A DNA stretch of 64,000 bases from Escherichia coli (GTDB taxonomy: Bacteria > Pseudomonadota > Gammaproteobacteria > Enterobacterales > Enterobacteriaceae): NCBI RefSeq assembly GCF_003334765.1, contig NZ_QOWT01000007.1, one strand, 5' to 3'. Positions within the stretch are counted from its first letter, which is position 1. The number at the start of each line of letters is the position of its first letter. The position numbers and the translations under genes were made by a program. Below are positions 9,503-49,035 of this stretch, in pieces. The notes under the pieces are model-generated. The model was not told the DNA's origin and made no database searches. It saw nothing but the letters and a program-made list of their open reading frames with translations.

Positions 9503-9597
9503 TGGCGGAAGATCACAGGAGTCGAACCTGCCCGGGACCGCTGGCGGCCCCAACTGGATTTGAAGTCCAGCCGCCTCACCGGAGACGACGATCTTCC
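9503..9597 (-). tRNA. selC: tRNA-Sec (selenocysteine tRNA)
   Basis: Minus strand reads GGAAGATCGTCGTCTCCGGTGAGGCGGCTGGACTTCAAATCCAGTTGGGGCCGCCAGCGGTCCCGGGCAGGTTCGACTCCTGTGATCTTCCGCCA, the 95-nt selC sequence with long extra arm and UCA anticodon. Confidence 0.95.
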
Positions 9598-34398: not shown

Positions 34399-34569
<171 letters not shown>

Positions 34570-34593
34570 TTCTCGCTTTGATGTAACAAAAAA

Positions 34594-34615
34594 CCTCGCT
34601 CCGGCGGGGTTTTTT
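34594..34615 (+). terminator. intrinsic terminator after rpmBG
   Basis: A6 run, CCTCGC-tccg-GCGGGG stem (one G-U pair), T6 run. Confidence 0.6.
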
Positions 34616-34666
34616 GTTATCTGCTTGCCCCCATATTGACTGCATCTGTTCATTCCTGGAGATGCT

Positions 34667-35514: not shown

Positions 35515-37279
<1,765 letters not shown>

Positions 37280-37626
37280 AATAAATAGCTGACTTATGGA
37301 TGTGCTGGGGATTCTATGTATTTAGCACCGGGTTTGCCATTACTTTTCCTTTTTTTGACTTAATTAGCCTCTGTTTGAGCTGATCTGCCGCTAGATCTTC
37401 ATTTTTTTTGTATTTTTATGCGATTCATTGAATTTCAGCCAGGATTGCAGCTTTACATCGACAATATCTGGATTCTCGAGTATGCAAAATTTTATCTCTA
37501 TGATTTTTATAATTAAAACATATTTTGTGTATAAAAATCATTCGGGTCGGATTGCTGCGAAAGAAATGATACACTAGCGCGTCAAAGTAAGTGCGTTATC
37601 AGTATTCGGGTAGCTGTTGAGCCTGG

Positions 37627-37638
37627 GGCGGTAGCGTG
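37627..37638 (+). promoter_or_regulatory. ops element (RfaH recruitment site, JUMPStart region) in the waaQ leader
   Basis: Exact GGCGGTAGCGTG followed by a T run, about 50-85 nt upstream of the waaQ start. Confidence 0.8.
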
Positions 37639-37721
37639 CTTTTTTCTGCTTAACTTAACCAGACAATCACACAAAAGAGTCGCTAGTGGAAAAGCCATTT
37701 CGAAAAATCCTGGTCATAAAG

Positions 37722-38756
37722 ATGCGATATCACGGAGATATGTTATTAACTACTCCTGTAATCAGTACACTCAAGCAGAATTATCCCGACGCAAAAATCG
37801 ATATGCTGCTTTACCAGGATACAATTCCGATTTTATCTGAAAACCCAGAAATTAATGCACTCTATGGTATAAGCAATAAAGGTACGGGAACATTCGATAA
37901 AATTAAAAATGCACTTTCACTGATAAAAACTCTGCGTGCGAATAATTACGACCTGGTCATTAATCTTACGGATCAGTGGATGGTGGCCCTGCTGGTACGT
38001 TGTTTACCTGCTCGTATGAAAATATCGCAGCTTTATGGTCATCGGCAGCATGGCATTTGGAAAAAAAGCTTTACACACTTAGCGCCTATACACGGTACAC
38101 ATATTGTTGAGCGTAATTTGTCGGTCCTTGAGCCATTAGGTATTACCGATTTTTATACTGAAACAACCATGAGTTACGCCGAGGATTGCTGGAAGAAAAT
38201 GCGCCAGGAATTAGATGCACTGGGCGTGAAAGATCATTATGTCGTCATCCAGCCGACAGCCAGACAGATATTTAAGTGCTGGGACAACGATAAATTTTCT
38301 ATGGTTATCGATGCGTTGCAACATCGTGGTTATCAGGTTGTGCTGACTTGTGGCCCTTCGGCAGATGATCTCGCTTGCGTAGATGAAATTGCACGAGGCT
38401 GCCAAACAAAACCTATTACCGGCCTTGCCGGTAAAACACGTTTTCCTGAACTGGGCGCATTAATTGATCATGCAGTGCTCTTTATTGGTGTGGATTCTGC
38501 GCCGGGGCATATTGCAGCGGCTGTGAAGACGCCAGTTATTAGCCTGTTTGGGGCCACTGATCATGTATTCTGGCGTCCATGGACCGAGAATATTATTCAG
38601 TTCTGGGCGGGGAATTATCAAAAAATGCCTACCCGGCACGAACTTGACCGCAACAAAAAATATCTTTCTGTTATTCCAGCGGAAGATGTCATTGCCGCTA
38701 CGGAAAAGCTGTTGCCAGAAGATGCACCTTCAGCTGACAGGAATGCGCAATTATGA
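37722..38756 (+). CDS. waaQ: LPS heptosyltransferase III
   Basis: GT9 heptosyltransferase; start placed at MRYHGDMLLTTPV (344 aa); in-frame GTG at 37686 is an alternative. Confidence 0.85.
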   Translation: MRYHGDMLLTTPVISTLKQNYPDAKIDMLLYQDTIPILSENPEINALYGISNKGTGTFDKIKNALSLIKTLRANNYDLVINLTDQWMVALLVRCLPARMKISQLYGHRQHGIWKKSFTHLAPIHGTHIVERNLSVLEPLGITDFYTETTMSYAEDCWKKMRQELDALGVKDHYVVIQPTARQIFKCWDNDKFSMVIDALQHRGYQVVLTCGPSADDLACVDEIARGCQTKPITGLAGKTRFPELGALIDHAVLFIGVDSAPGHIAAAVKTPVISLFGATDHVFWRPWTENIIQFWAGNYQKMPTRHELDRNKKYLSVIPAEDVIAATEKLLPEDAPSADRNAQL

Positions 38757-39877
38757 TCGTGGCATTTTGCTTATATAAATATTTTCCATTTGGTGGGCTA
38801 CAGCGTGACTTTATGCGTATTGCCTCAACAGTTGCCGCACGGGGCCACCATGTTCGGGTATATACACAGTCGTGGGAAGGCGATTGCCCGGAAGCATTTG
38901 AGCTTATTCGCGTACCGGTTAAATCCCATACTAACCATGGACGTAATGCAGAATATTATGCCTGGGTTCAAAACCATCTGAAGGCACATCCCGCTGATCG
39001 CGTTGTTGGCTTTAATAAGATGCCTGGGCTGGATGTTTATTTTGCCGCCGATGTCTGTTATGCCGAGAAAGTGGCGCAAGAAAAGGGATTTTTCTATCGT
39101 TTAACATCGCGCTATCGCCATTATGCTGCATTCGAGCGAGCGACTTTCGAACATGGTAAATCGACGAAACTTATGATGTTGACCGATAAGCAAATCGCCG
39201 ATTTTCAGAAGCATTACCAAACTGAACCAGAACGTTTTCAAATTCTTCCCCCTGGTATCTATCCTGACAGAAAATACAACGCGCAAATCCCAAACAGTCG
39301 TGAAATTTATCGCCAGAAAAATGGCATCACTGAACAACAAAACTTATTGCTGCAGGTTGGTTCAGATTTTGGTCGTAAAGGTGTGGATCGCTCAATTGAA
39401 GCTTTGGCATCGTTACCAGAATCGTTACGCCATAATACGTTGTTGTTTGTTGTTGGCCAGGATAAACCGCGTAAATTTGAAGTGCTGGCAGAAAAACTCG
39501 GTGTGCGTAGTAAAGTGCATTTCTTTTCCGGGCGGAATGATGTGTCTGAATTAATGGCAGCCGCTGATTTATTAATGCATCCCGCTTATCAGGAGGCTGC
39601 AGGTATTGTTCTCCTTGAGGCAATTGCCGCGGGATTACCTGTGTTGACGACTGCGGTATGCGGATACGCACACTATATCACAGATGCTAATTGTGGAACG
39701 GTCATCGCTGAACCTTTCTCCCAGGAACAATTAAATGACGTTTTACGTAAAGCGTTAACTCAATCTCCATTGCGCATGGCCTGGGCGGAGAATGCTCGGT
39801 ATTACGCCGATACTCAGGATTTATACAGCCTGCCGGAGAAAGCGGCAGATATCATTACAGGTGGTTTAGATGGTTGA
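38753..39877 (+). CDS. waaG: LPS glucosyltransferase I (GT4)
   Basis: 374 aa [24 protein letters not shown]; 4-nt ATGA overlap with waaQ. Confidence 0.9.
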
Positions 39878-40667
39878 ATTAGAAGAGCCACTTGCCACAC
39901 TCTGGCGTGGTAAAGATGCCTTTGCAGAAGTTAAAAAACTGAATGGCGAGGTCTTCCGTGAACTGGAGACGCGTCGCACATTACGCTTTGAACTGGCCGG
40001 CAAAAGTTATTTCCTCAAATGGCACAAAGGGACGACCCTAAAGGAGATTATAAAAAATCTGCTCTCATTGCGGATGCCCGTTTTAGGTGCAGACAGAGAG
40101 TGGCACGCTATTCATCGACTGCATGATGTCGGTGTTGATACGATGCACGGAATAGGATTTGGTGAAAAAGGGTTAAATCCATTAACTCGCACATCATTTA
40201 TTATTACCGAAGATCTCACTCCCACAATTAGCCTTGAAGATTATTGTGCAGATTGGGCGGTCAACCCGCCTGATGTACATATTAAGCGTATGCTGATCGC
40301 GCGTGTGGCAACCATGGTGCGCAAAATGCATGCAGCAGGGATTAATCACCGTGATTGTTATATCTGCCACTTTTTACTCCATTTGCCATTTACTGGCCGG
40401 GAAGATGAATTAAAAATTTCGGTTATCGATCTGCACCGGGCACAGATACGTGCAAAAGTACCACGTCGTTGGCGGGATAAAGATTTGATTGGTTTATATT
40501 TCTCATCAATGAATATTGGTCTGACGCAGAGAGATATCTGGCGATTTATGAAGGTTTATTTTGGGATGCCTTTACGCGATATTTATAGACTTGAGATTGA
40601 TTTACTTAAAAAGGCAAGGATTAAAGCAGGAAAAATAGAAGCAAGAACAATAAGAAAAAACTTGTAA
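39870..40667 (+). CDS. waaP: LPS core heptose(I) kinase
   Basis: 265 aa; kinase-like HRDCYICHF motif; 8-nt overlap with waaG. Confidence 0.9.
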
Positions 40668-40699
40668 ATAGTATTTTATTACAAAAAGGGATTCTAAAA

Positions 40700-41680
40700 T
40701 TGTTGAAATATAGAAACTTCGTTGCTAAGAAGAAAAATTTATACCAAAACGAAGTGTCGTATGTTAAAAATTTACATATTGCACTATGCTTTGACCGTGA
40801 ATTCATAATGCCAGCGGGTGTTGCATTATATTCAATTATATCCAACAATAGACATATTAACCTTCATTTTCACCTTCTTATATCAGGCATAGAAGAAAAG
40901 GAGTGTTCAGCTTTTTACGAACTAGAAGGTCCTAATACATCAATATCTGTATATTATATAACTGATAAATTTGACATTAATCCGGATACATTAGTTCTTG
41001 GTATTCCTTTATCAACATGTTTACGTTTTTTAATCCCAGAAGTTATTGATGATAAAATAAATAAGATACTTTATCTTGACTGTGATGTCATATGTAATGG
41101 TCCTTTAGATGAACTGGTTGATTATAATTTAAATGCTGATATTGCATGTGTAATTCCAGATTCGCCAGAAATGCAAGAACGTGTAAAAAAATTAGACTAT
41201 GGCATTGAGTTTATTAATTATTTTAATGCCGGGGTTATGTTTATTAATACCAGCGAATGGAAAAAAAATAATATAACACAAAAAGCGTTAGAAATGATCA
41301 ACAGTGGAAAAGTATATAGGTATGCAGATCAGGATGTGCTCAATATTTTACTTAATGGACGAGTGCATTACCTTGATAAGAAGTACAATAATAAGACAAC
41401 ATTGTCAGTACGATGTGATGAAGAACAAAAAAACTTGCCCAACACAATTATAATGCATTATGTTACCCAGAATAAACCATGGTACAAAATATTTAGAGCA
41501 CAAAATTTTGATCATTATTTTTCAAATTCTCCTTGGAAGAACCATAAAAGAAATCTAGCTCCATCATCAAGTGAGATTAGGTTAAAGTCTAAAGTTTTTT
41601 GGCTAGAAGGAAAATATTGTAAAGCCATTTCTTATTATTATAAGTATTTACTTGTTAAATTATTTGGCTTAAAGATTTAG
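40700..41680 (+). CDS. GT8-family LPS core glycosyltransferase at the position K-12 gives to waaS
   Basis: 326 aa; GT8 motifs shared with the two downstream paralogs (LYLDCDVICNG, YFNAGVMFIN, DQDVLN, KPW); low GC. Confidence 0.6.
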   Translation: MLKYRNFVAKKKNLYQNEVSYVKNLHIALCFDREFIMPAGVALYSIISNNRHINLHFHLLISGIEEKECSAFYELEGPNTSISVYYITDKFDINPDTLVLGIPLSTCLRFLIPEVIDDKINKILYLDCDVICNGPLDELVDYNLNADIACVIPDSPEMQERVKKLDYGIEFINYFNAGVMFINTSEWKKNNITQKALEMINSGKVYRYADQDVLNILLNGRVHYLDKKYNNKTTLSVRCDEEQKNLPNTIIMHYVTQNKPWYKIFRAQNFDHYFSNSPWKNHKRNLAPSSSEIRLKSKVFWLEGKYCKAISYYYKYLLVKLFGLKI

Positions 41681-41693
41681 CTGGAATGAAATT

Positions 41694-42773
41694 ATGAAAA
41701 TAGCCTTTATTGGCGAAGCTGTTTCTGGATTTGGCGGCATGGAAACAGTCATTCGTGATGTTATTACTACCTTCAGGCAACAACATATCCAAAGTGAAAT
41801 TTTTTTCTTTTGTCGTAATGACAAAATGGATAAGGGATGGCTGGAAGGTATTAAGTACTCGTGTTCATTTTCCAATATTCGCTTAGGTTTTTTGCGTCGC
41901 GCGAAACATATTCATGCTTTAAGCAAATGGCTTCATGATTATCAGCCAGATGTTGTTATTTGTATTGACGTGATCTCGTGTTTGTATGCGGCCAAAGCTC
42001 GTAAAAAATCGGGGATTGATGTACCTGTATTTTCATGGCCGCATTTTTCTTTAGATCATAAAAAACATGCCGAATATATCACCTGTGCCGACTATCATTT
42101 AGCCATCAGCTCTGGTATTAAACAGCAAATGATTAGCCGGGGTGTACCAGAATCGACAATAAACGTTATTTTTAATCCCGTTGAGGCGAAAAATTCAGTC
42201 ATTCCTGCACCCGGGGAAGGCGAAACGGCAACATTCATTTATGTTGGGCGCATGAAATTTGAAGGCCAAAAGCGCGTAAAAGATCTGCTTGATGGCTTAT
42301 CACAAGTGCAAGGTGACTGGAAACTTCATGTATTGGGAGATGGCTCCGATTTCGAAAAATGCCAGGCTTATGGTAGAGGATTAAATATTGATGATCGAAT
42401 TGTCTGGTATGGTTGGCAACAACATCCCTGGAAATTAGTTCAGCAAGATATTAAAAAAGTGAGTGCATTATTACTCACGTCATCTTTTGAAGGTTTCCCA
42501 ATGACTCTACTTGAAGCCTTGTCGTGGGGGATCCCTTGTATCAGTGCAGATTGTGTCTCCGGGCCTGTTGATATCATTCAGCCTGATGTTAATGGTCATT
42601 TATATCAACCGGGGGATATGACCGGTTTTGTTGCTCTTCTCAATAAATACATAGCCGGTGAAATTCACATCGCACATGAAAAAATTCCGGCGTCGATCGA
42701 TAAATTTTATCAACCGAAATATTACGACAGATTGCAAAAGATAATTATTTCTGTTATTTCCCGGAGGAAATAA
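41694..42773 (+). CDS. waaB: LPS alpha-1,6-galactosyltransferase (GT4)
   Basis: 359 aa MKIAFIGEAVSGFGGMETVI...FFFCRNDKMDK; closely matches recalled WaaB. Confidence 0.8.
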   Translation: MKIAFIGEAVSGFGGMETVIRDVITTFRQQHIQSEIFFFCRNDKMDKGWLEGIKYSCSFSNIRLGFLRRAKHIHALSKWLHDYQPDVVICIDVISCLYAAKARKKSGIDVPVFSWPHFSLDHKKHAEYITCADYHLAISSGIKQQMISRGVPESTINVIFNPVEAKNSVIPAPGEGETATFIYVGRMKFEGQKRVKDLLDGLSQVQGDWKLHVLGDGSDFEKCQAYGRGLNIDDRIVWYGWQQHPWKLVQQDIKKVSALLLTSSFEGFPMTLLEALSWGIPCISADCVSGPVDIIQPDVNGHLYQPGDMTGFVALLNKYIAGEIHIAHEKIPASIDKFYQPKYYDRLQKIIISVISRRK

Positions 42774-43792
42774 TGCAGCAGGTTTTTTTCCAGGAGACTG
42801 AGTTTCTCAATTCGGTTATTGATTATAATCATAAAATAGAAGCAGAAAATCTTTGTCTGGATATTGCTTATGGGACTGACAAAAATTTTCTTTTTGGATG
42901 CGGAATATCGATTGCTTCAATATTAAAATATAATGAAGGAAATCAATTATGCTTTCATATTTTTACTGATTATTTCGGTGATGACGATCGCAAATATTTT
43001 GATGCCCTGGCCAGGCAATATAAAACAAGAATTAAGATATATTTAATTAATGGTGATCGACTCCGTTCATTACCCTGCACCAAGAACTGGACTCATGCTA
43101 TTTATTTTCGTTTTGTTATCGCCGATTACTTTTTTAATAAAGCACCCAAAGTTCTTTATCTGGATGCAGATATTATTTGTCAGGGAACTATAGAACCACT
43201 TATCAATTACACGTTTTCTGAACATACAGTCGCAATGGTTGTTACAGAAGGACAAAAAGACTGGTGGGCAAAACGTGCTCATTCGTTAGGTGTTGCTGGG
43301 ATTGCTAATGGTTACTTTAACTCCGGTTTTTTACTGATTAATACTAATCAATGGACGAATGAGCGGGTTTCTGCACGGGCCATTGCAATGTTAAGTGATC
43401 CAGAGATAGTCAAAAAAATAACACATCCTGATCAGGATGTATTAAATATGTTATTGGCAGACAAACTTGTTTATGCTGATATTAAATATAACACTCAGTT
43501 TAGTTTAAATTATCAACTAAAAGAAAGTTTTAAAAACCCAGTAACTAACGATACAGTTTTTATTCATTATATTGGTCCAACTAAACCCTGGCATGACTGG
43601 GCCTGGGATTATCCAATATCACAAGCTTTTATGGCGGCAAAAAATGCTTCACCATGGAAGGATACTGCGTTATTGAAACCGGTTAATAGTAATCAATTAA
43701 GATACAGTGCTAAACATATGTTGAAAAAAAAGCAATATATCAAAGGATTTGGCAACTATCTTTTGTATTTTATAAAAAAGCTAAAGCATTAA
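42773..43792 (+). CDS. waaO: GT8 LPS outer-core alpha-1,3-hexosyltransferase (WaaI/WaaO-like)
   Basis: 339 aa GT8 paralog; 1-nt overlap with waaB stop. Confidence 0.65.
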   Translation: MQQVFFQETEFLNSVIDYNHKIEAENLCLDIAYGTDKNFLFGCGISIASILKYNEGNQLCFHIFTDYFGDDDRKYFDALARQYKTRIKIYLINGDRLRSLPCTKNWTHAIYFRFVIADYFFNKAPKVLYLDADIICQGTIEPLINYTFSEHTVAMVVTEGQKDWWAKRAHSLGVAGIANGYFNSGFLLINTNQWTNERVSARAIAMLSDPEIVKKITHPDQDVLNMLLADKLVYADIKYNTQFSLNYQLKESFKNPVTNDTVFIHYIGPTKPWHDWAWDYPISQAFMAAKNASPWKDTALLKPVNSNQLRYSAKHMLKKKQYIKGFGNYLLYFIKKLKH

Positions 43793-43802
43793 TACTGATA
43801 AT

Positions 43803-43931
43803 CTATACTCTAAATAATTCGAGTTGCAGGACAAAAAGCCAGTGGCGTTTTGAGGAACGCTTGCGTTGGCCCTGAAATGCCGAGTAACTCGCCGATGCAG
43901 CACATGCAACTTGAAGTATAACGAGTATATA
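43803..43931. repeat. ERIC/IRU-like imperfect palindromic intergenic repeat, variant centre
   Basis: Ends CTATACTCTAAATAATTCGAGTTGCAGG ... GCACATGCAACTTGAAGTATAACGAGTATATA are inverted copies of each other, a sequence class I recognise as ERIC arms; the centre lacks the canonical ERIC core. Confidence 0.45.
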
Positions 43932-43955
43932 AAGTAATGATATAAGGATAGCCTT

Positions 43956-44972
43956 GTGAACTCATTTCCTGCCATAGAGATAGATAAAGTTAAAGCCTGG
44001 GATTTTAGGCTTATTGATGAAAATACTGCTGAAAGTTTAAATGTTGCCTATGGTGTCGATTCCAATTATCTTGATGGTGTAGGTGTTTCCATTACTTCAA
44101 TTGTCATTAATAATCGACATGTTAATCTTGATTTTTATATTATTGCTGATGTTTATAACGACGATTTCTTTCAAAAAGTTGAGAAACTTGCTGAGCAATA
44201 CCAATTAAGAATCACACTTTATAGAATAAATACTGATAATCTTCAGTGCCTGCCTTGTACACAAGTCTGGTCAAGAGCAATGTACTTCCGTTTATTTGCT
44301 TTTCAATTATTGGGAGTAACACTTAATCGTTTGCTTTATCTTGATGCCGATGTAGTTTGTAAGGGAAATATTAGTCAACTATTGCATTTAGAGTTTAATG
44401 GAGCGGTGGCTGCAGTAGTCAGGGATGTAGACCCAATGCAGGAAAAGGCGGTAGTCAGATTATCTGATCCTGAACTTCGGGGGCAGTATTTTAATTCTGG
44501 TGTCGTTTACTTAGACCTAAAAAAATGGACAGAAGCAAAACTAACCGAAAAAGCACTGTCTATTCTTATGAGTAAAGATAGTATTTATAAGTATCCTGAC
44601 CAGGACGTTATGAATGTCCTACTAAAAGGGATGACAATATTCCTGCCACGTGAGTTCAATACTATATATACAATAAAAAGTGAGTTAAAAGATAAAACGC
44701 ATCAAAAATATAAAGAGTTGATAAAAGAGGATACTCTTCTTATTCATTATACTGGGGCCACCAAGCCGTGGCACAAATGGGCAATTTATCCATCGGTAAA
44801 ATACTATAAAATAGCTTTAGAAAGATCCCCCTGGAAAGATGACTCACCACGAGATGCAAAATCAATTATTGAATTCAAAAAAAGATATAAACATCTGTTA
44901 GTGCAACATCATTATATCTCAGGACTCATTGCAGGAGTGTGTTATCTTTGCCGAAAATATTACCGTAAATAA
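43956..44972 (+). CDS. waaJ: GT8 LPS outer-core alpha-1,2-glucosyltransferase
   Basis: 338 aa; N-terminus and body closely match recalled K-12 WaaJ/WaaR (…SFPAIEIDKVKAWDF..., C-terminal HHYISG.IAGVCYLCRKYYRK). Confidence 0.8.
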   Translation: MNSFPAIEIDKVKAWDFRLIDENTAESLNVAYGVDSNYLDGVGVSITSIVINNRHVNLDFYIIADVYNDDFFQKVEKLAEQYQLRITLYRINTDNLQCLPCTQVWSRAMYFRLFAFQLLGVTLNRLLYLDADVVCKGNISQLLHLEFNGAVAAVVRDVDPMQEKAVVRLSDPELRGQYFNSGVVYLDLKKWTEAKLTEKALSILMSKDSIYKYPDQDVMNVLLKGMTIFLPREFNTIYTIKSELKDKTHQKYKELIKEDTLLIHYTGATKPWHKWAIYPSVKYYKIALERSPWKDDSPRDAKSIIEFKKRYKHLLVQHHYISGLIAGVCYLCRKYYRK

Positions 44973-44989
44973 CATTTAACTGGTTTAAC

Positions 44990-45688
44990 ATGATTCAGAA
45001 GAATAAAATCAAAGATTTAGTTGTTTTTACCGATGAAAATAACTCAAAGTATCTCAATGTATTAAATGACTTTCTTTCTTATGATATTAATATCATCAAA
45101 GTTTTTCGTTCTATAGATGATACAAAAGTCATGCTTATTGATACCGATTACGGTAAATTGATACTTAAAGTTTTTTCGCCTAAAGTAAAACGCAACGAAC
45201 GTTTCTTTAAATCTCTTTTAAAGGGAGATTATTATGAACGCCTTTTTGAGCATACTCAAAAAGTGCGTAACGAGGGGCTACATTCTCTCAATGATTTTTA
45301 TTTGTTGGCAGAACGGAAAACATTACGTTTTGTCCATACTTATATCATGCTTATCGAATATATCGATGGCGTAGAGTTGTGTGATATCCCCGATATTGAT
45401 GAAACTTTAAAAAATAAAATTCAACAATCAATTCGTTCATTACACGAACACGGTATGGTATCTGGTGATCCTCACCGCGGTAATTTTATTATTGAAAATG
45501 GTGAAGTACGCATTATTGATCTTTCAGGAAAACGGGCATCTGCACAACGTAAAGCGAAAGATCGTATTGATTTAGAGCGACATTATGGTATTAAGAATGA
45601 GGTTAAAGATCTCGGTTATTATCTTTTAGTTTATCGTAAAAAAATACGTAATCTTATGCGGCGTTTGAAAGGGAAGCCAGCACGATAA
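44990..45688 (+). CDS. waaY: LPS core heptose(II) kinase
   Basis: 232 aa, kinase-like; position after waaJ. Confidence 0.85.
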   Translation: MIQKNKIKDLVVFTDENNSKYLNVLNDFLSYDINIIKVFRSIDDTKVMLIDTDYGKLILKVFSPKVKRNERFFKSLLKGDYYERLFEHTQKVRNEGLHSLNDFYLLAERKTLRFVHTYIMLIEYIDGVELCDIPDIDETLKNKIQQSIRSLHEHGMVSGDPHRGNFIIENGEVRIIDLSGKRASAQRKAKDRIDLERHYGIKNEVKDLGYYLLVYRKKIRNLMRRLKGKPAR

Positions 45689-45759
45689 AGTAAAAGTCTT
45701 ACATTTAAACGTCTTCGTCAGGACATTTCTATGCGGAGTTCTTATTTCACAGGTTTATC

Positions 45760-46569
45760 ATGAAGAATATTAGATACATTGACAAAAAAGATGTTGAAAA
45801 CCTGATAGAAAGTAAAACGTCTGATGATGTTATTATTTTTCTTTCCGGCCCCACATCGCAAAAAACACCATTGTCAGTGCTGCAGACAAGGGATGTTATT
45901 GCTGTCAATGGTTCTGCACAATATCTATTAAGTCATAATATTATTCCCTATATTTATGTACTTACCGATGTTCGCTTTTTACATCAACGGCGTGATGATT
46001 TTTATAAATTTAGCCAGAGAAGTCGTTATACCATCGTAAATGTTGACGTTTATGAACATGCTTCTGAAGAAGATAAGCGGTACATCCTTCAAAACTGCCT
46101 GGTACTACGTTCATTTTACCGCAGAGAAAAAGGTGGATTGATCAAGAAGATCAAGTTTAATATTTTGAGCCGAATTCATAAAGAGCTCCTGATCTCTGTA
46201 CCTTTTTCTAAAAAAGGTCGTCTGGTTGGCTTTTGCAAGGATATTAACCTCGGTTATTGTTCATGCCATACCGTTGCTTTTGCTGCAATCCAAATAGCCT
46301 ATTCGCTGAAGTATGCTCGTATTATCTGTTCAGGCCTTGATTTAACGGGTAGCTGTTCGCGTTTCTATGATGAAGATAAGAATCCTATGCCCTCAGAGTT
46401 GATTCGGGATTTATTCAAAATTTTACCATTTTTCCGTTTTATGCGTGAAAATATAGAAGATATCAATATTTATAATTTATCCGACGATACTGCAATTCAA
46501 TATGATATTATTCCCTATATGAAAATATCCGAAATTGAAGAGCCGTGTGTTTATGAAAAAATAAGCTAA
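45760..46569 (+). CDS. waaZ: LPS core biosynthesis protein WaaZ (KdoIII-associated)
   Basis: 269 aa; position and similarity to recalled WaaZ; low GC. Confidence 0.7.
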   Translation: MKNIRYIDKKDVENLIESKTSDDVIIFLSGPTSQKTPLSVLQTRDVIAVNGSAQYLLSHNIIPYIYVLTDVRFLHQRRDDFYKFSQRSRYTIVNVDVYEHASEEDKRYILQNCLVLRSFYRREKGGLIKKIKFNILSRIHKELLISVPFSKKGRLVGFCKDINLGYCSCHTVAFAAIQIAYSLKYARIICSGLDLTGSCSRFYDEDKNPMPSELIRDLFKILPFFRFMRENIEDINIYNLSDDTAIQYDIIPYMKISEIEEPCVYEKIS

Positions 46570-46621
46570 TATTTTATATGTGTTTATTACGTGTTATAAA
46601 TTATATTGGAGTTGGCTAATA

Positions 46622-47764
46622 ATGATTAAAAAAATAATATTTACCGTCACACCAATATTTTCTATACCGCCAAAAGGAGCTGCAGCGGTTGAAACATGGA
46701 TTTATCAGGTCGCAAAAAGACTTTCGATTCCAGTAACTATCGCCTGTATTCGAAACGAAGGTTACCCAACCTACACAAAAGTAAATGATCACTGTGATAT
46801 TCACTACATTGGTTTTAGTCGAGTCTATAAACGACTTTTCCAAAAGTGGACTCGACTTGATCCTGTGCCATATTCTCAGCGTATTTTAAATACCCAACCT
46901 AAAAACACTGATCCGAAAGACTCTGTTATTGTTATCCACAATAGCATGAAGCTGTATAAACAGATTCGTAGCAGAAGCCCTCACGCGCAGCTAGTTATGC
47001 ATCTTCATAATGCTTTCGAGCCAGGTGAGTTAGACAAAAATGCAAAGATAATTGTTCCTAGCCAGTTTCTTTTCGATTTCTATTCGGAAAAAATGCCTGA
47101 TGCAAATATTGCTATTGTGCCTAATGGTTTTTGTTCTGAATCGTATGAACAAAATAATACTGAAGATTTGAGGCAGAAACTGAACATTGATGCAAATGAT
47201 ACCGTGTTATTATTTGCAGGAAGGATATCACCAGATAAAGGTTGCCTGATGCTTATGGAGGCTTTTAATCAGCTGAATAAGATACAAGATAACCTCAAAC
47301 TGGTGATTGTCGGAGATCCTTTTGCCAGTAAAAAAGGCGAAAAAGCTGAATATCAGAAAAAAGTTCTGGATGCAGCGAAAGCTATTGGAGCGCAATGCAT
47401 TATGGCGGGTGGACAGCCTCCAGAGCAGATGCATAACTATTACCGTTTAGCAGATTTAGTTGTTGTTCCTTCTCAGGTAGAAGAAGCTTTTTGTATGGTA
47501 GCTGTTGAAGCGATGGCGGCAGGTAAACCAGTGCTTGCCAGTCAAAAAGGTGGAATTAGTGAGTTTGTTCTGGAAGGAATTACAGGCTATCACCTTGCAG
47601 AGCCTATGACATCTGAAAGTATTCTCGCGGATATTAAGCGCGTTTTGGCGGATGCTGACAGAGCTCAAATTGCTAAAAATGCCCGAAATTTTGTTTTCTC
47701 AAAATATAGCTGGGAACATGTTACTCAGCGTTTTGAAGCACAAATACAAGACTGGTTTGGTTAA
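46622..47764 (+). CDS. waaK: GT4 glycosyltransferase, WaaK-like (GlcNAc transferase in Salmonella and R2 cores)
   Basis: ORF 46580..47764; start at MIKKIIFTV with GGAG Shine-Dalgarno (381 aa); GT4 EX7E-type C-terminal domain; not a GT9 heptosyltransferase like K-12 WaaU. Confidence 0.65.
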   Translation: MIKKIIFTVTPIFSIPPKGAAAVETWIYQVAKRLSIPVTIACIRNEGYPTYTKVNDHCDIHYIGFSRVYKRLFQKWTRLDPVPYSQRILNTQPKNTDPKDSVIVIHNSMKLYKQIRSRSPHAQLVMHLHNAFEPGELDKNAKIIVPSQFLFDFYSEKMPDANIAIVPNGFCSESYEQNNTEDLRQKLNIDANDTVLLFAGRISPDKGCLMLMEAFNQLNKIQDNLKLVIVGDPFASKKGEKAEYQKKVLDAAKAIGAQCIMAGGQPPEQMHNYYRLADLVVVPSQVEEAFCMVAVEAMAAGKPVLASQKGGISEFVLEGITGYHLAEPMTSESILADIKRVLADADRAQIAKNARNFVFSKYSWEHVTQRFEAQIQDWFG

Positions 47765-47782
47765 AAATTATTGGATTTGAAG

Positions 47783-47819
47783 AGCCTGCCTGAACTTAAT
47801 GTCAGGCAGGCTTTTTTTT
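47783..47819 (+). terminator. intrinsic terminator at the end of the waaQ operon, overlapping the waaL stop
   Basis: AGCCTGCCTGA-acttaatg-TCAGGCAGGCT 11-bp stem followed by T8. Confidence 0.75.
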
Positions 47820-49035
47820 ATTTATTCCGCATTGCTAACAGTAAACCAACAATCAAGCCAATTGGTTTGAGATCAACTTCCTCGAAGTTACCTCGAATAA
47901 TATAAAAGCTTACAAGCGTTAAAAATAGTAGTAATTGACCATTATAAGGAGTGACGACAACTGTTTTAAACGTTGCATTAGCTGTCTCTTTGATAATAGA
48001 GCCATACAGATAAAGTAAAGCGAGTAGTCCAGCCAAACCCGCTGCAAACCAAATTGACAAAACAACGTTGTGTGGCCCAATGGATTGCCTGAACTTCCAT
48101 GACGGAAAATCTACAACACGCTTATTATATATTGCATGGTAAATATCATCGCCGTAGCCATATCCCTTAAGAGGATTTTCCATAATTAATGTCCACGCCG
48201 TACCTTGAGTACCATTGGTATAGCGATAAGAACTGTCGGTCTGTTGAAGTTTATAAATAAGCCTGTCTTTACCAGCATGATCACCTTTATAGGTAAATAC
48301 ACCCACTGCGGCAACAGAAATAACGATGGAAGTCAGCATCAATAATTTCCACTGACGATTTAAGATTAACCATAGCAGAGTCACTATGAATACTGCCAGC
48401 CATGCACCACGAGACAGCGTTCCTAATAGCAGAAATAAGAAAACTGCACTAAAAATTACGAATGCTATTTTATAAGAGGTTTTCTTGATAAGCCAAAGGT
48501 TTAATAATGCTGGAAACAGAAACACCATTGAATCGGAAATACTACGGTGTTCATAGGTGGAAAATGGCATTATTCCTTTATTATAATCCTGAATATAAAG
48601 AATAAGTTCAACAAGACAACGTAAGCCAAGTCCGGTAACTAATGAGTATAGTACAATTTTACCAATGCTTTCATTATCTTCATCTTTTAATAATGCAGGT
48701 ATAAGTAAACTATAGGCCAAAAATCCTTTAAGTACCGTATTACTGAATTCTTTAAAACTGATTTTCAGATCAGGTGATATAAAAGTAGCATATAAAAGAA
48801 TGAGTGATAGTGCCAGGACACTATAAAAAAGATTATTTTTATAGAGTACTTTAAATGTTCCCGGAGCACGAGAAACTTGATAGATTACCGTAATAATCAT
48901 TAGTATAGATATGATGTGTTTATAACGGGTTATACCATCAAGGAAAAAGGTTGCAATAAAGAGGAATACCAACGCTTTATTCCAGTACGGTTTCCACTTT
49001 TCTTTATTACGTAGCGCCAGCGAGGCTGTTAACAT
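47818..49035 (-). CDS. waaL: O-antigen ligase
   Basis: 405 aa polytopic protein, N-terminus MLTASLALRNKEKWKPYWNKALVFLF; resembles the Salmonella-type WaaL I recall, not K-12 WaaL. Confidence 0.8.
   Translation of the reverse strand: MLTASLALRNKEKWKPYWNKALVFLFIATFFLDGITRYKHIISILMIITVIYQVSRAPGTFKVLYKNNLFYSVLALSLILLYATFISPDLKISFKEFSNTVLKGFLAYSLLIPALLKDEDNESIGKIVLYSLVTGLGLRCLVELILYIQDYNKGIMPFSTYEHRSISDSMVFLFPALLNLWLIKKTSYKIAFVIFSAVFLFLLLGTLSRGAWLAVFIVTLLWLILNRQWKLLMLTSIVISVAAVGVFTYKGDHAGKDRLIYKLQQTDSSYRYTNGTQGTAWTLIMENPLKGYGYGDDIYHAIYNKRVVDFPSWKFRQSIGPHNVVLSIWFAAGLAGLLALLYLYGSIIKETANATFKTVVVTPYNGQLLLFLTLVSFYIIRGNFEEVDLKPIGLIVGLLLAMRNK

Follow-up and report, generated by a model that had tools for sequence, protein, structure and literature searches.

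An exact ops 12-mer within a full JUMPstart element as the very probable RfaH loading site of an Escherichia coli LPS-core operon, with a possible attenuator in the waaQ leader

In E. coli the 5′ UTR of waaQ carries the ops sequence together with the JUMPstart element and needs RfaH (PMC6358824). RfaH occupancy of the rfa operon was found by ChIP in both CFT073 and K-12 (PMC9765446, PMC5449661) and, precisely, the waa operon of CFT073 is occupied by RfaH in ChIP-seq data and is coated by H-NS/StpA (PMC9765446). The waa operon is a validated RfaH target, and when RfaH is missing it is subject to Rho/NusG-dependent polarity (PMC5449661). At ops, RNA polymerase pauses at C9 and U11, with T11-G12 driving the pause; the non-template ops strand forms a hairpin (C3:G8) in which T6 is flipped into a pocket of RfaH, and the bases G4, G5, A7 and G8 are essential for RfaH recruitment (PMC5995543). 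[quoted passage not shown]

The waaQ leader with RfaH, ops, JUMPstart and RirA is therefore textbook knowledge. This element licenses full LPS-core synthesis, on which depend the integrity of the outer membrane, resistance to detergents and antibiotics and the structure of phage receptors; all of this is known already both from E. coli K-12 and from pathogenic strains. We analysed a 64-kb stretch of E. coli DNA (hereafter the window, meaning the whole stretch) in which an earlier note had reported ops between waaA and waaQ. What is gained for the window is the confident annotation of promoter, transcription start, RirA, JUMPstart, ops, GTG start and terminator; minor gains are a correction of the K-12-style waaQ start codon and a modestly supported hypothesis of an attenuator in the waaQ leader. 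The features considered are the following.

36002..37279, minus strand: waaA (kdtA), the divergent upstream gene (ORF; NF004385 at 905.8 bits; RefSeq annotation of an identical strain).
37567..37575, plus strand: putative extended -10 promoter motif TGaTACACT (TG at 37567-8, hexamer at 37570-5), read from the sequence.
37582..37654, plus strand: RirA-equivalent sRNA, the first 73 nt of the waaQ mRNA, by alignment to MG1655 rirA (b4760).
37589..37641, plus strand: predicted long RNA hairpin, from MFE folds of the leader and of the RirA-equivalent RNA.
37600..37638, plus strand: JUMPstart element (Rfam RF01707), of which ops is the 3′ end.
37607-37611 paired with 37621-37625, plus strand: JUMPstart stem-loop (RF01707).
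37627..37638, plus strand: ops 12-mer GGCGGTAGCGTG, an exact match, unique in the window.
37630-37633, plus strand: ops bases G4-A7, the loop contacted by RfaH, with T6 at 37632 and the pause base U11 at 37637 (roles from PMC5995543).
37640..37645, plus strand: run of six T, read from the sequence, separated from ops by C37639 and overlapping the base of the long hairpin.
37675..37679, plus strand: weak Shine-Dalgarno-like AAGAG, 6 nt upstream of GTG 37686.
37686..38756, plus strand: waaQ (rfaQ) CDS with a GTG start (PGAP; NF007742).
37686..47764, plus strand: body of the waa operon, ten genes (waaQ, rfaG, rfaP, a GT8 gene, waaB, waaO, rfaJ, rfaY, waaZ and a GlcNAc transferase).
43804..43929, no strand assigned: ERIC-armed imperfect palindrome of 126 bp, inserted in the 163-bp waaO-rfaJ gap.
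47779..47816, plus strand: strong intrinsic terminator closing the operon (very strong hairpin of 15 pairs, 7 of them G-C, then a T run).

The earlier note had placed an exact ops 12-mer, followed by a T run, in the waaA-waaQ divergent region, and both were found there. GGCGGTAGCGTG is the sole match with 0 or 1 mismatch in the 64-kb window, where an exact 12-mer is expected by chance about 0.008 times on both strands (our own arithmetic). On the coding, non-template strand it matches the required 12-mer GGCGGTAGnnTG exactly, down to the T11-G12 that induce the pause, and all the bases with reported roles in RfaH recruitment or pausing are wild-type in the window. When up to 2 mismatches were allowed, 7 ops-like matches were found in the window against 5.2 ± 2.2 in shuffled sequences, which is not significant; loose matches are uninformative, and what carries the case is therefore the exact match together with the covariance-model match. 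The latter covers model positions 1-38 of 38 of RF01707 and scores 53.1 bits, where the gathering score is 35 (E = 2.6e-9 over the whole window), the only other Rfam match above threshold in the window being tRNA-Sec. Compared with the JUMPstart family described for rfb/O-antigen, kps, hly, tra and similar leaders, the full-length match, the 5-bp stem and the terminal ops are common to both, whereas the element of the window has one extra base in the loop.

For the transcription start we relied on MG1655, whose ncRNA rirA (b4760, RefSeq) spans 3808166..3808238 on the minus strand (73 nt), its ends being those of the RefSeq feature and of reviews. It is identical to 37582..37654 of the window at 72 of 73 positions, the sole difference being A to G at 37609, so that a 73-nt sequence with JUMPstart and ops would stand at the 5′ end of the waaQ mRNA also here. 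Because the rirA 5′ end, which is that of the waaQ mRNA, maps to 37582, the transcription-start equivalent is, on this alignment, 45 nt upstream of ops, and not downstream of the 12-mer, the position that the earlier note had named as contrary to its proposal. The extended -10 motif lies 7 nt upstream of the transferred 5′ end and has no recognisable -35 for this promoter; among the loci listed in the comparative scan described below, its form TGnTAYAMT is kept in the waaQ leaders of Escherichia, Citrobacter, Pluralibacter, Cedecea, Shimwellia, Kosakonia and Silvania. A consensus sigma-70 scan of 37200..37800 called no plus-strand promoter and no terminator. This scanner requires a -35 hexamer and a simple hairpin, and since it needs a -35 it missed the extended -10; we considered the scan uninformative here and hence not as negative evidence. 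The putative waaQ promoter is called on three grounds, namely the extended -10, the conservation of this motif and the 5′ end transferred from MG1655, and the transferred start together with the conserved extended -10 places ops and JUMPstart in a transcribed 5′ leader, between the start site and the first gene.

As for the first gene, the NF007742 (RfaQ/WaaQ) profile matches it with 680 bits, residues 1-350 falling on profile positions 1-350 of 352. The AAGAG motif is kept in the leaders of other genera, with AAGGA in Pectobacterium and AAGGG in C. youngae and Citrobacter sp. Cu233. An in-frame GTG preceded by AAGAG occurs 47-49 nt after ops in nearly all the waaQ leaders among the loci listed, and 35-45 nt after ops in four other genera (again among the loci listed). 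The N-terminal WaaQ peptide VEKPFRKILVIK is conserved through synonymous changes, as (V-E/D-K-P-F-R-K-)I-L-V-I-K, and Pectobacterium has Leu, not Met, where K-12 WaaQ has its supposed start Met. On this comparative evidence the real waaQ start is GTG 37686, not the MG1655-style ATG 37722 (344 aa), and the MG1655 waaQ annotation appears 12 codons short. The intergenic region is therefore 37280..37685 (406 bp) and the 5′ UTR 37582..37685 (104 nt). The location of the feature in the waaA-waaQ divergent region, as proposed earlier, stands, but its end at 37721 does not, since it assumed ATG 37722. Conservation over at least 8 genera extends to the promoter, to JUMPstart and ops, to the distance from there to the GTG, and to the Shine-Dalgarno-like motif.

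The leader heads ten co-oriented LPS-core genes (37686..47764), annotated by transfer from a record of an identical strain (L001) at an offset of +24199, with the ORFs confirmed in the window. This operon body is about 10 kb long and has 32-39 % GC (over 40000..49000) against about 50 % in the flanks, which bears out the description of a long, AT-rich waaQ operon. The hairpin 47779..47816 separates the last waa gene from rfaL, which is convergent to it, and probably serves as terminator for both. Relative to the K-12 MG1655 leader with rirA, locus, promoter motif, ops, T run and spacing are the same and the sequence is nearly identical from promoter to start codon; the A to G change at 37609 makes an A-U pair of the JUMPstart stem G.U here. 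The intergenic sequence at about 37370..37520 differs from MG1655, and the operon is of another core type: it has a GT8 gene where MG1655 has rfaS, carries the ERIC insertion and ends in a GlcNAc transferase gene.

The 601 bases around ops/JUMPstart are 100 % identical to E. coli strains 167 and MLI104K2. In 5426 complete E. coli genomes, leader identity was ≥99 % in 481, 90-95 % in 461 and 80-90 % in 4470, and the two sampled representatives of these classes fit different LPS-core types (the 91 % example is K-12-type, the 81.6 % example R1-type). Three core types are nearly invariant over the segment 37527..37645, whereas what lies further upstream is divergent; on these alignments the core-type cassette seems to have its recombination boundary inside the waaA-waaQ intergenic region and not at a gene edge.

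We consider it nearly certain that this leader serves the E. coli LPS-core operon as its RfaH loading site. The RfaH-dependent antitermination of the waaQ operon predicted earlier is supported by a full JUMPstart and ops in a transcribed leader, on the coding strand, and by the published dependence in K-12 and CFT073. Transcription would start at about 37582 from the extended -10 promoter and, after 45 nt, RNA polymerase would transcribe JUMPstart and ops, pausing at ops U11. In the paused complex the non-template GGCGGTAG would fold into a small DNA hairpin with T6 flipped out; RfaH would bind this ops DNA hairpin, switch fold, remain on the polymerase and exclude NusG. It would also recruit a ribosome to the weak GTG start and suppress pausing and Rho-dependent polarity along 10 kb of an operon that is AT-rich and bound by H-NS, as far as the terminator 47779..47816. 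A second form of the leader's first 73 nt would be the ops-containing sRNA RirA, an excess of which would antagonise RfaH. Pausing, RfaH binding, anti-polarity and RirA activity are taken here from the literature, and features, positions, conservation and near-identity to K-12 were computed by us; that this strain behaves like K-12 and CFT073 we infer by analogy. From the E. coli map, the rfaH gene itself is expected outside this 64-kb window.

The MFE folds of the leader and of the RirA-equivalent RNA predict a longer hairpin, in which 37589..37600 pairs with 37630..37641 (ops bases 4-12 plus CUU) as a lower stem of 12 bp, with the JUMPstart stem-loop at the tip and the stem running straight into the T run. 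The fold energies are unexceptional (z = -1.5 for the leader and z = -1.6 for the RirA-equivalent RNA), so thermodynamics alone gives no support to this hairpin, and we used comparative pair counts. The comparative scan took one genome per species, with a pattern made of the JUMPstart stem and the ops core only, and gave at least 120 loci; among the loci listed, at least 17 were waaQ leaders, with a waaQ homolog 64-94 nt downstream. In an alignment of 18 leaders among the loci listed, the JUMPstart stem pair 37608/37624 covaries across genera (AU 9, GU 5, GC 2, UA 2). In the same alignment of listed loci, 88.9 % of cells were paired against 33-52 % with the partners slid, controls that overstate the support because the structure was derived from the window, the ops arm is invariant, bases of the T run take part in 2 of the 12 pairs and the leaders share common ancestry.

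In the lower stem, 84.7 % of cells were paired in the 18 leaders (among the loci listed), 6 pairs having changed on a single side and 2 on both. The changes in the 5′ arm stay complementary to the invariant ops (G.U to A-U, U.G to C-G, and one G-C to A-U double change), and one lower-stem position is unpaired in 11 of the 18 leaders among the loci listed. Four or more consecutive T within the 12 nt that follow ops were found in 12 of 17 waaQ leaders against 14 of 103 other JUMPstart loci (among the loci listed). The listed leaders with no adjacent T run (Pectobacterium, C. youngae, Kosakonia) retain 5-9 of the 12 stem pairs against 10-12 elsewhere, and stem retention goes with the T run (rho 0.62, p 0.006, among the loci listed). 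Compared with the other 103 JUMPstart loci listed, waaQ leaders add an ops-complementary upstream segment and a T run after ops, both uncommon elsewhere. Among the loci listed, most Enterobacteriaceae waaQ leaders have this module; those of Pectobacterium, C. youngae and Kosakonia lack it, and so do most of the other JUMPstart operons.

The ERIC-like hairpin that the earlier note had placed at 43800..43930 is a genuine ERIC-armed repeat in the waaO-rfaJ gap, with 25-nt inverted arms (43804..43828 and 43905..43929) and a strong RNA fold, -44.6 kcal/mol for the gap (z = -2.8). The K-12-type gap measures 39 bp and does not contain it. Of 5426 complete E. coli genomes, only about 498 (about 9 %) have the element here, and the insertion is specific to this core type. 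A single-copy status, suggested by megablast, was rejected as a word-size artefact: sensitive blastn shows a dispersed family, present in every genome at a median of 5 places. In a copy between yeiS and preT of strain H2, the sequences that we take to be the ERIC primer sites were found, ERIC2 exactly and ERIC1R with one mismatch. The arms of the window element are near-identical (one mismatch) to both arms of the H2 copy and the central ~65 bp differ, with neither the ERIC1R nor the ERIC2 primer site of the canonical core in these central bases. Thus, like the ERIC/IRU repeats of Enterobacteriaceae, the element is a 126-bp imperfect palindrome with conserved terminal arms, intergenic, transcribed and dispersed (about 5 detectable places per genome), but its central ~65 bp are unlike the canonical core. 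No terminator-like site was called at 43804..43929 and no U tract comes after it, and the plus-strand terminator-like matches inside the operon are weak (10 in total, no excess over the 7.8 ± 3.0 of shuffles).

Against the reading of the leader as RfaH loading site, the ops 12-mer could be a functionless chance occurrence, as matches with up to 2 mismatches are no commoner than in shuffles; this is scarcely credible for an exact match within a covariance-model match over all 38 positions, and the presence of ops at the same spacing before waaQ in many genera refutes it by conservation. The 72 of 73 identities to MG1655 rirA would also suit a region whose main role is to be the gene for a trans-acting sRNA, RirA, that titrates RfaH, with cis antitermination secondary. 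We regard this as unlikely: RirA phenotypes were seen on overexpression, ChIP and genetic evidence speak for the cis role, as does the fact that unrelated RfaH operons have a conserved ops in their leaders, and the two roles are not mutually exclusive. That the ERIC-armed hairpin is an intra-operon pause or polarity site that RfaH must override, the side question of the earlier note, is in our judgement improbable. An untranslated gap of 163 bp where Rho could load, the strong fold and the absence of the element from the K-12-type operon are in its favour. Against it, the element is followed by no U tract and gave no terminator-like call, a Shine-Dalgarno (AAGGA) and a GTG start belonging to rfaJ itself come directly after it, and the operon shows no decay in the roughly 9 % of E. 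coli genomes where the element is fixed. The effects most often ascribed to ERIC transcripts concern the stability or processing of mRNA.

The attenuator would refine the main RfaH explanation, not replace it. On the folding model, the ops hairpin followed by the six T might act as a terminator-like attenuator, at which polymerases without RfaH terminate and release RirA and RfaH-modified ones read through; we consider this tentative, though possible. In its favour, ops lies in the 3′ arm of a 12-bp lower stem ending in a T run, the 5′ arm stays complementary to ops across genera, T runs are enriched in the waaQ leaders listed, the stem is lost along with the T run, and the annotated RirA 3′ end (37654) comes shortly after this run. 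On the other side, that end is 13 nt past the stem base, beyond the 7-9 nt usual for intrinsic terminators, and, of the GC-rich hairpin and U tract that define such terminators, a hairpin and U6 are present but the terminator scanner made no call; the fold z values are modest, one stem position is unpaired in most of the leaders listed, and the kinship of the sequences and the window-derived structure overstate the pairing support. Should the attenuator exist, 37589..37600 would be kept complementary to ops in waaQ leaders as part of an RfaH-gated device that sets the ratio of RirA to waaQ mRNA, a self-limiting feedback loop that we put forward as somewhat doubtful. A hairpin sequestering ops, followed by a T run and possibly working as an RfaH-sensitive attenuator that generates RirA, is the point with some research value here.

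Some JUMPstart loci classed as non-waaQ (such as L097 of Cedecea davisae, L019, L028 and L040) also have T runs after ops. The L097 leader resembles the waaQ leader of Enterobacter sp. Ag1 and may be a waaQ leader that was missed, the locus being short; the other three form a separate conserved leader family with CGTGCCTTTTTTACACACAA in common.

In the waaA-waaQ intergenic region, the upstream half (37370..37520) is highly divergent between core types. The RefSeq record of the otherwise identical strain MLI104K2 has, at the equivalent of 37438/37439, a block of 584 bp annotated as 'hypothetical protein'. We rejected it as an insertion with a gene: it starts IS1-like, with what we take to be the end of IS1, and continues with poly-C, so it is an assembly artefact, irrelevant to the window, and looks like an IS insertion garbled by assembly. 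MarA is reported to bind the kdtA regulatory region with no regulatory effect (PMC12052159).

Within the operon, the position of K-12 rfaS is taken at 40700..41680 by a GT8-family glycosyltransferase gene, with a TTG start in the ORF list. No similarity between its product and RfaS was detectable (BLASTP E = 1.8), and therefore the operon is not simply K-12-like with a different last gene.

Elsewhere in the window, Rfam matches to istR, Leu_leader and RNAI at 34512..34617 were below threshold and we rejected them, as they merely reflect the hairpin-plus-U tract AAAAAACCTCGCTCCGGCGGGGTTTTTT (34542..34617) after rpmG, which is most simply read as the rpmBG terminator. The tRNA-Sec gene (selC), a classic integration hotspot for pathogenicity islands, lies at 9507..9597 on the minus strand (Rfam, 83.8 bits).
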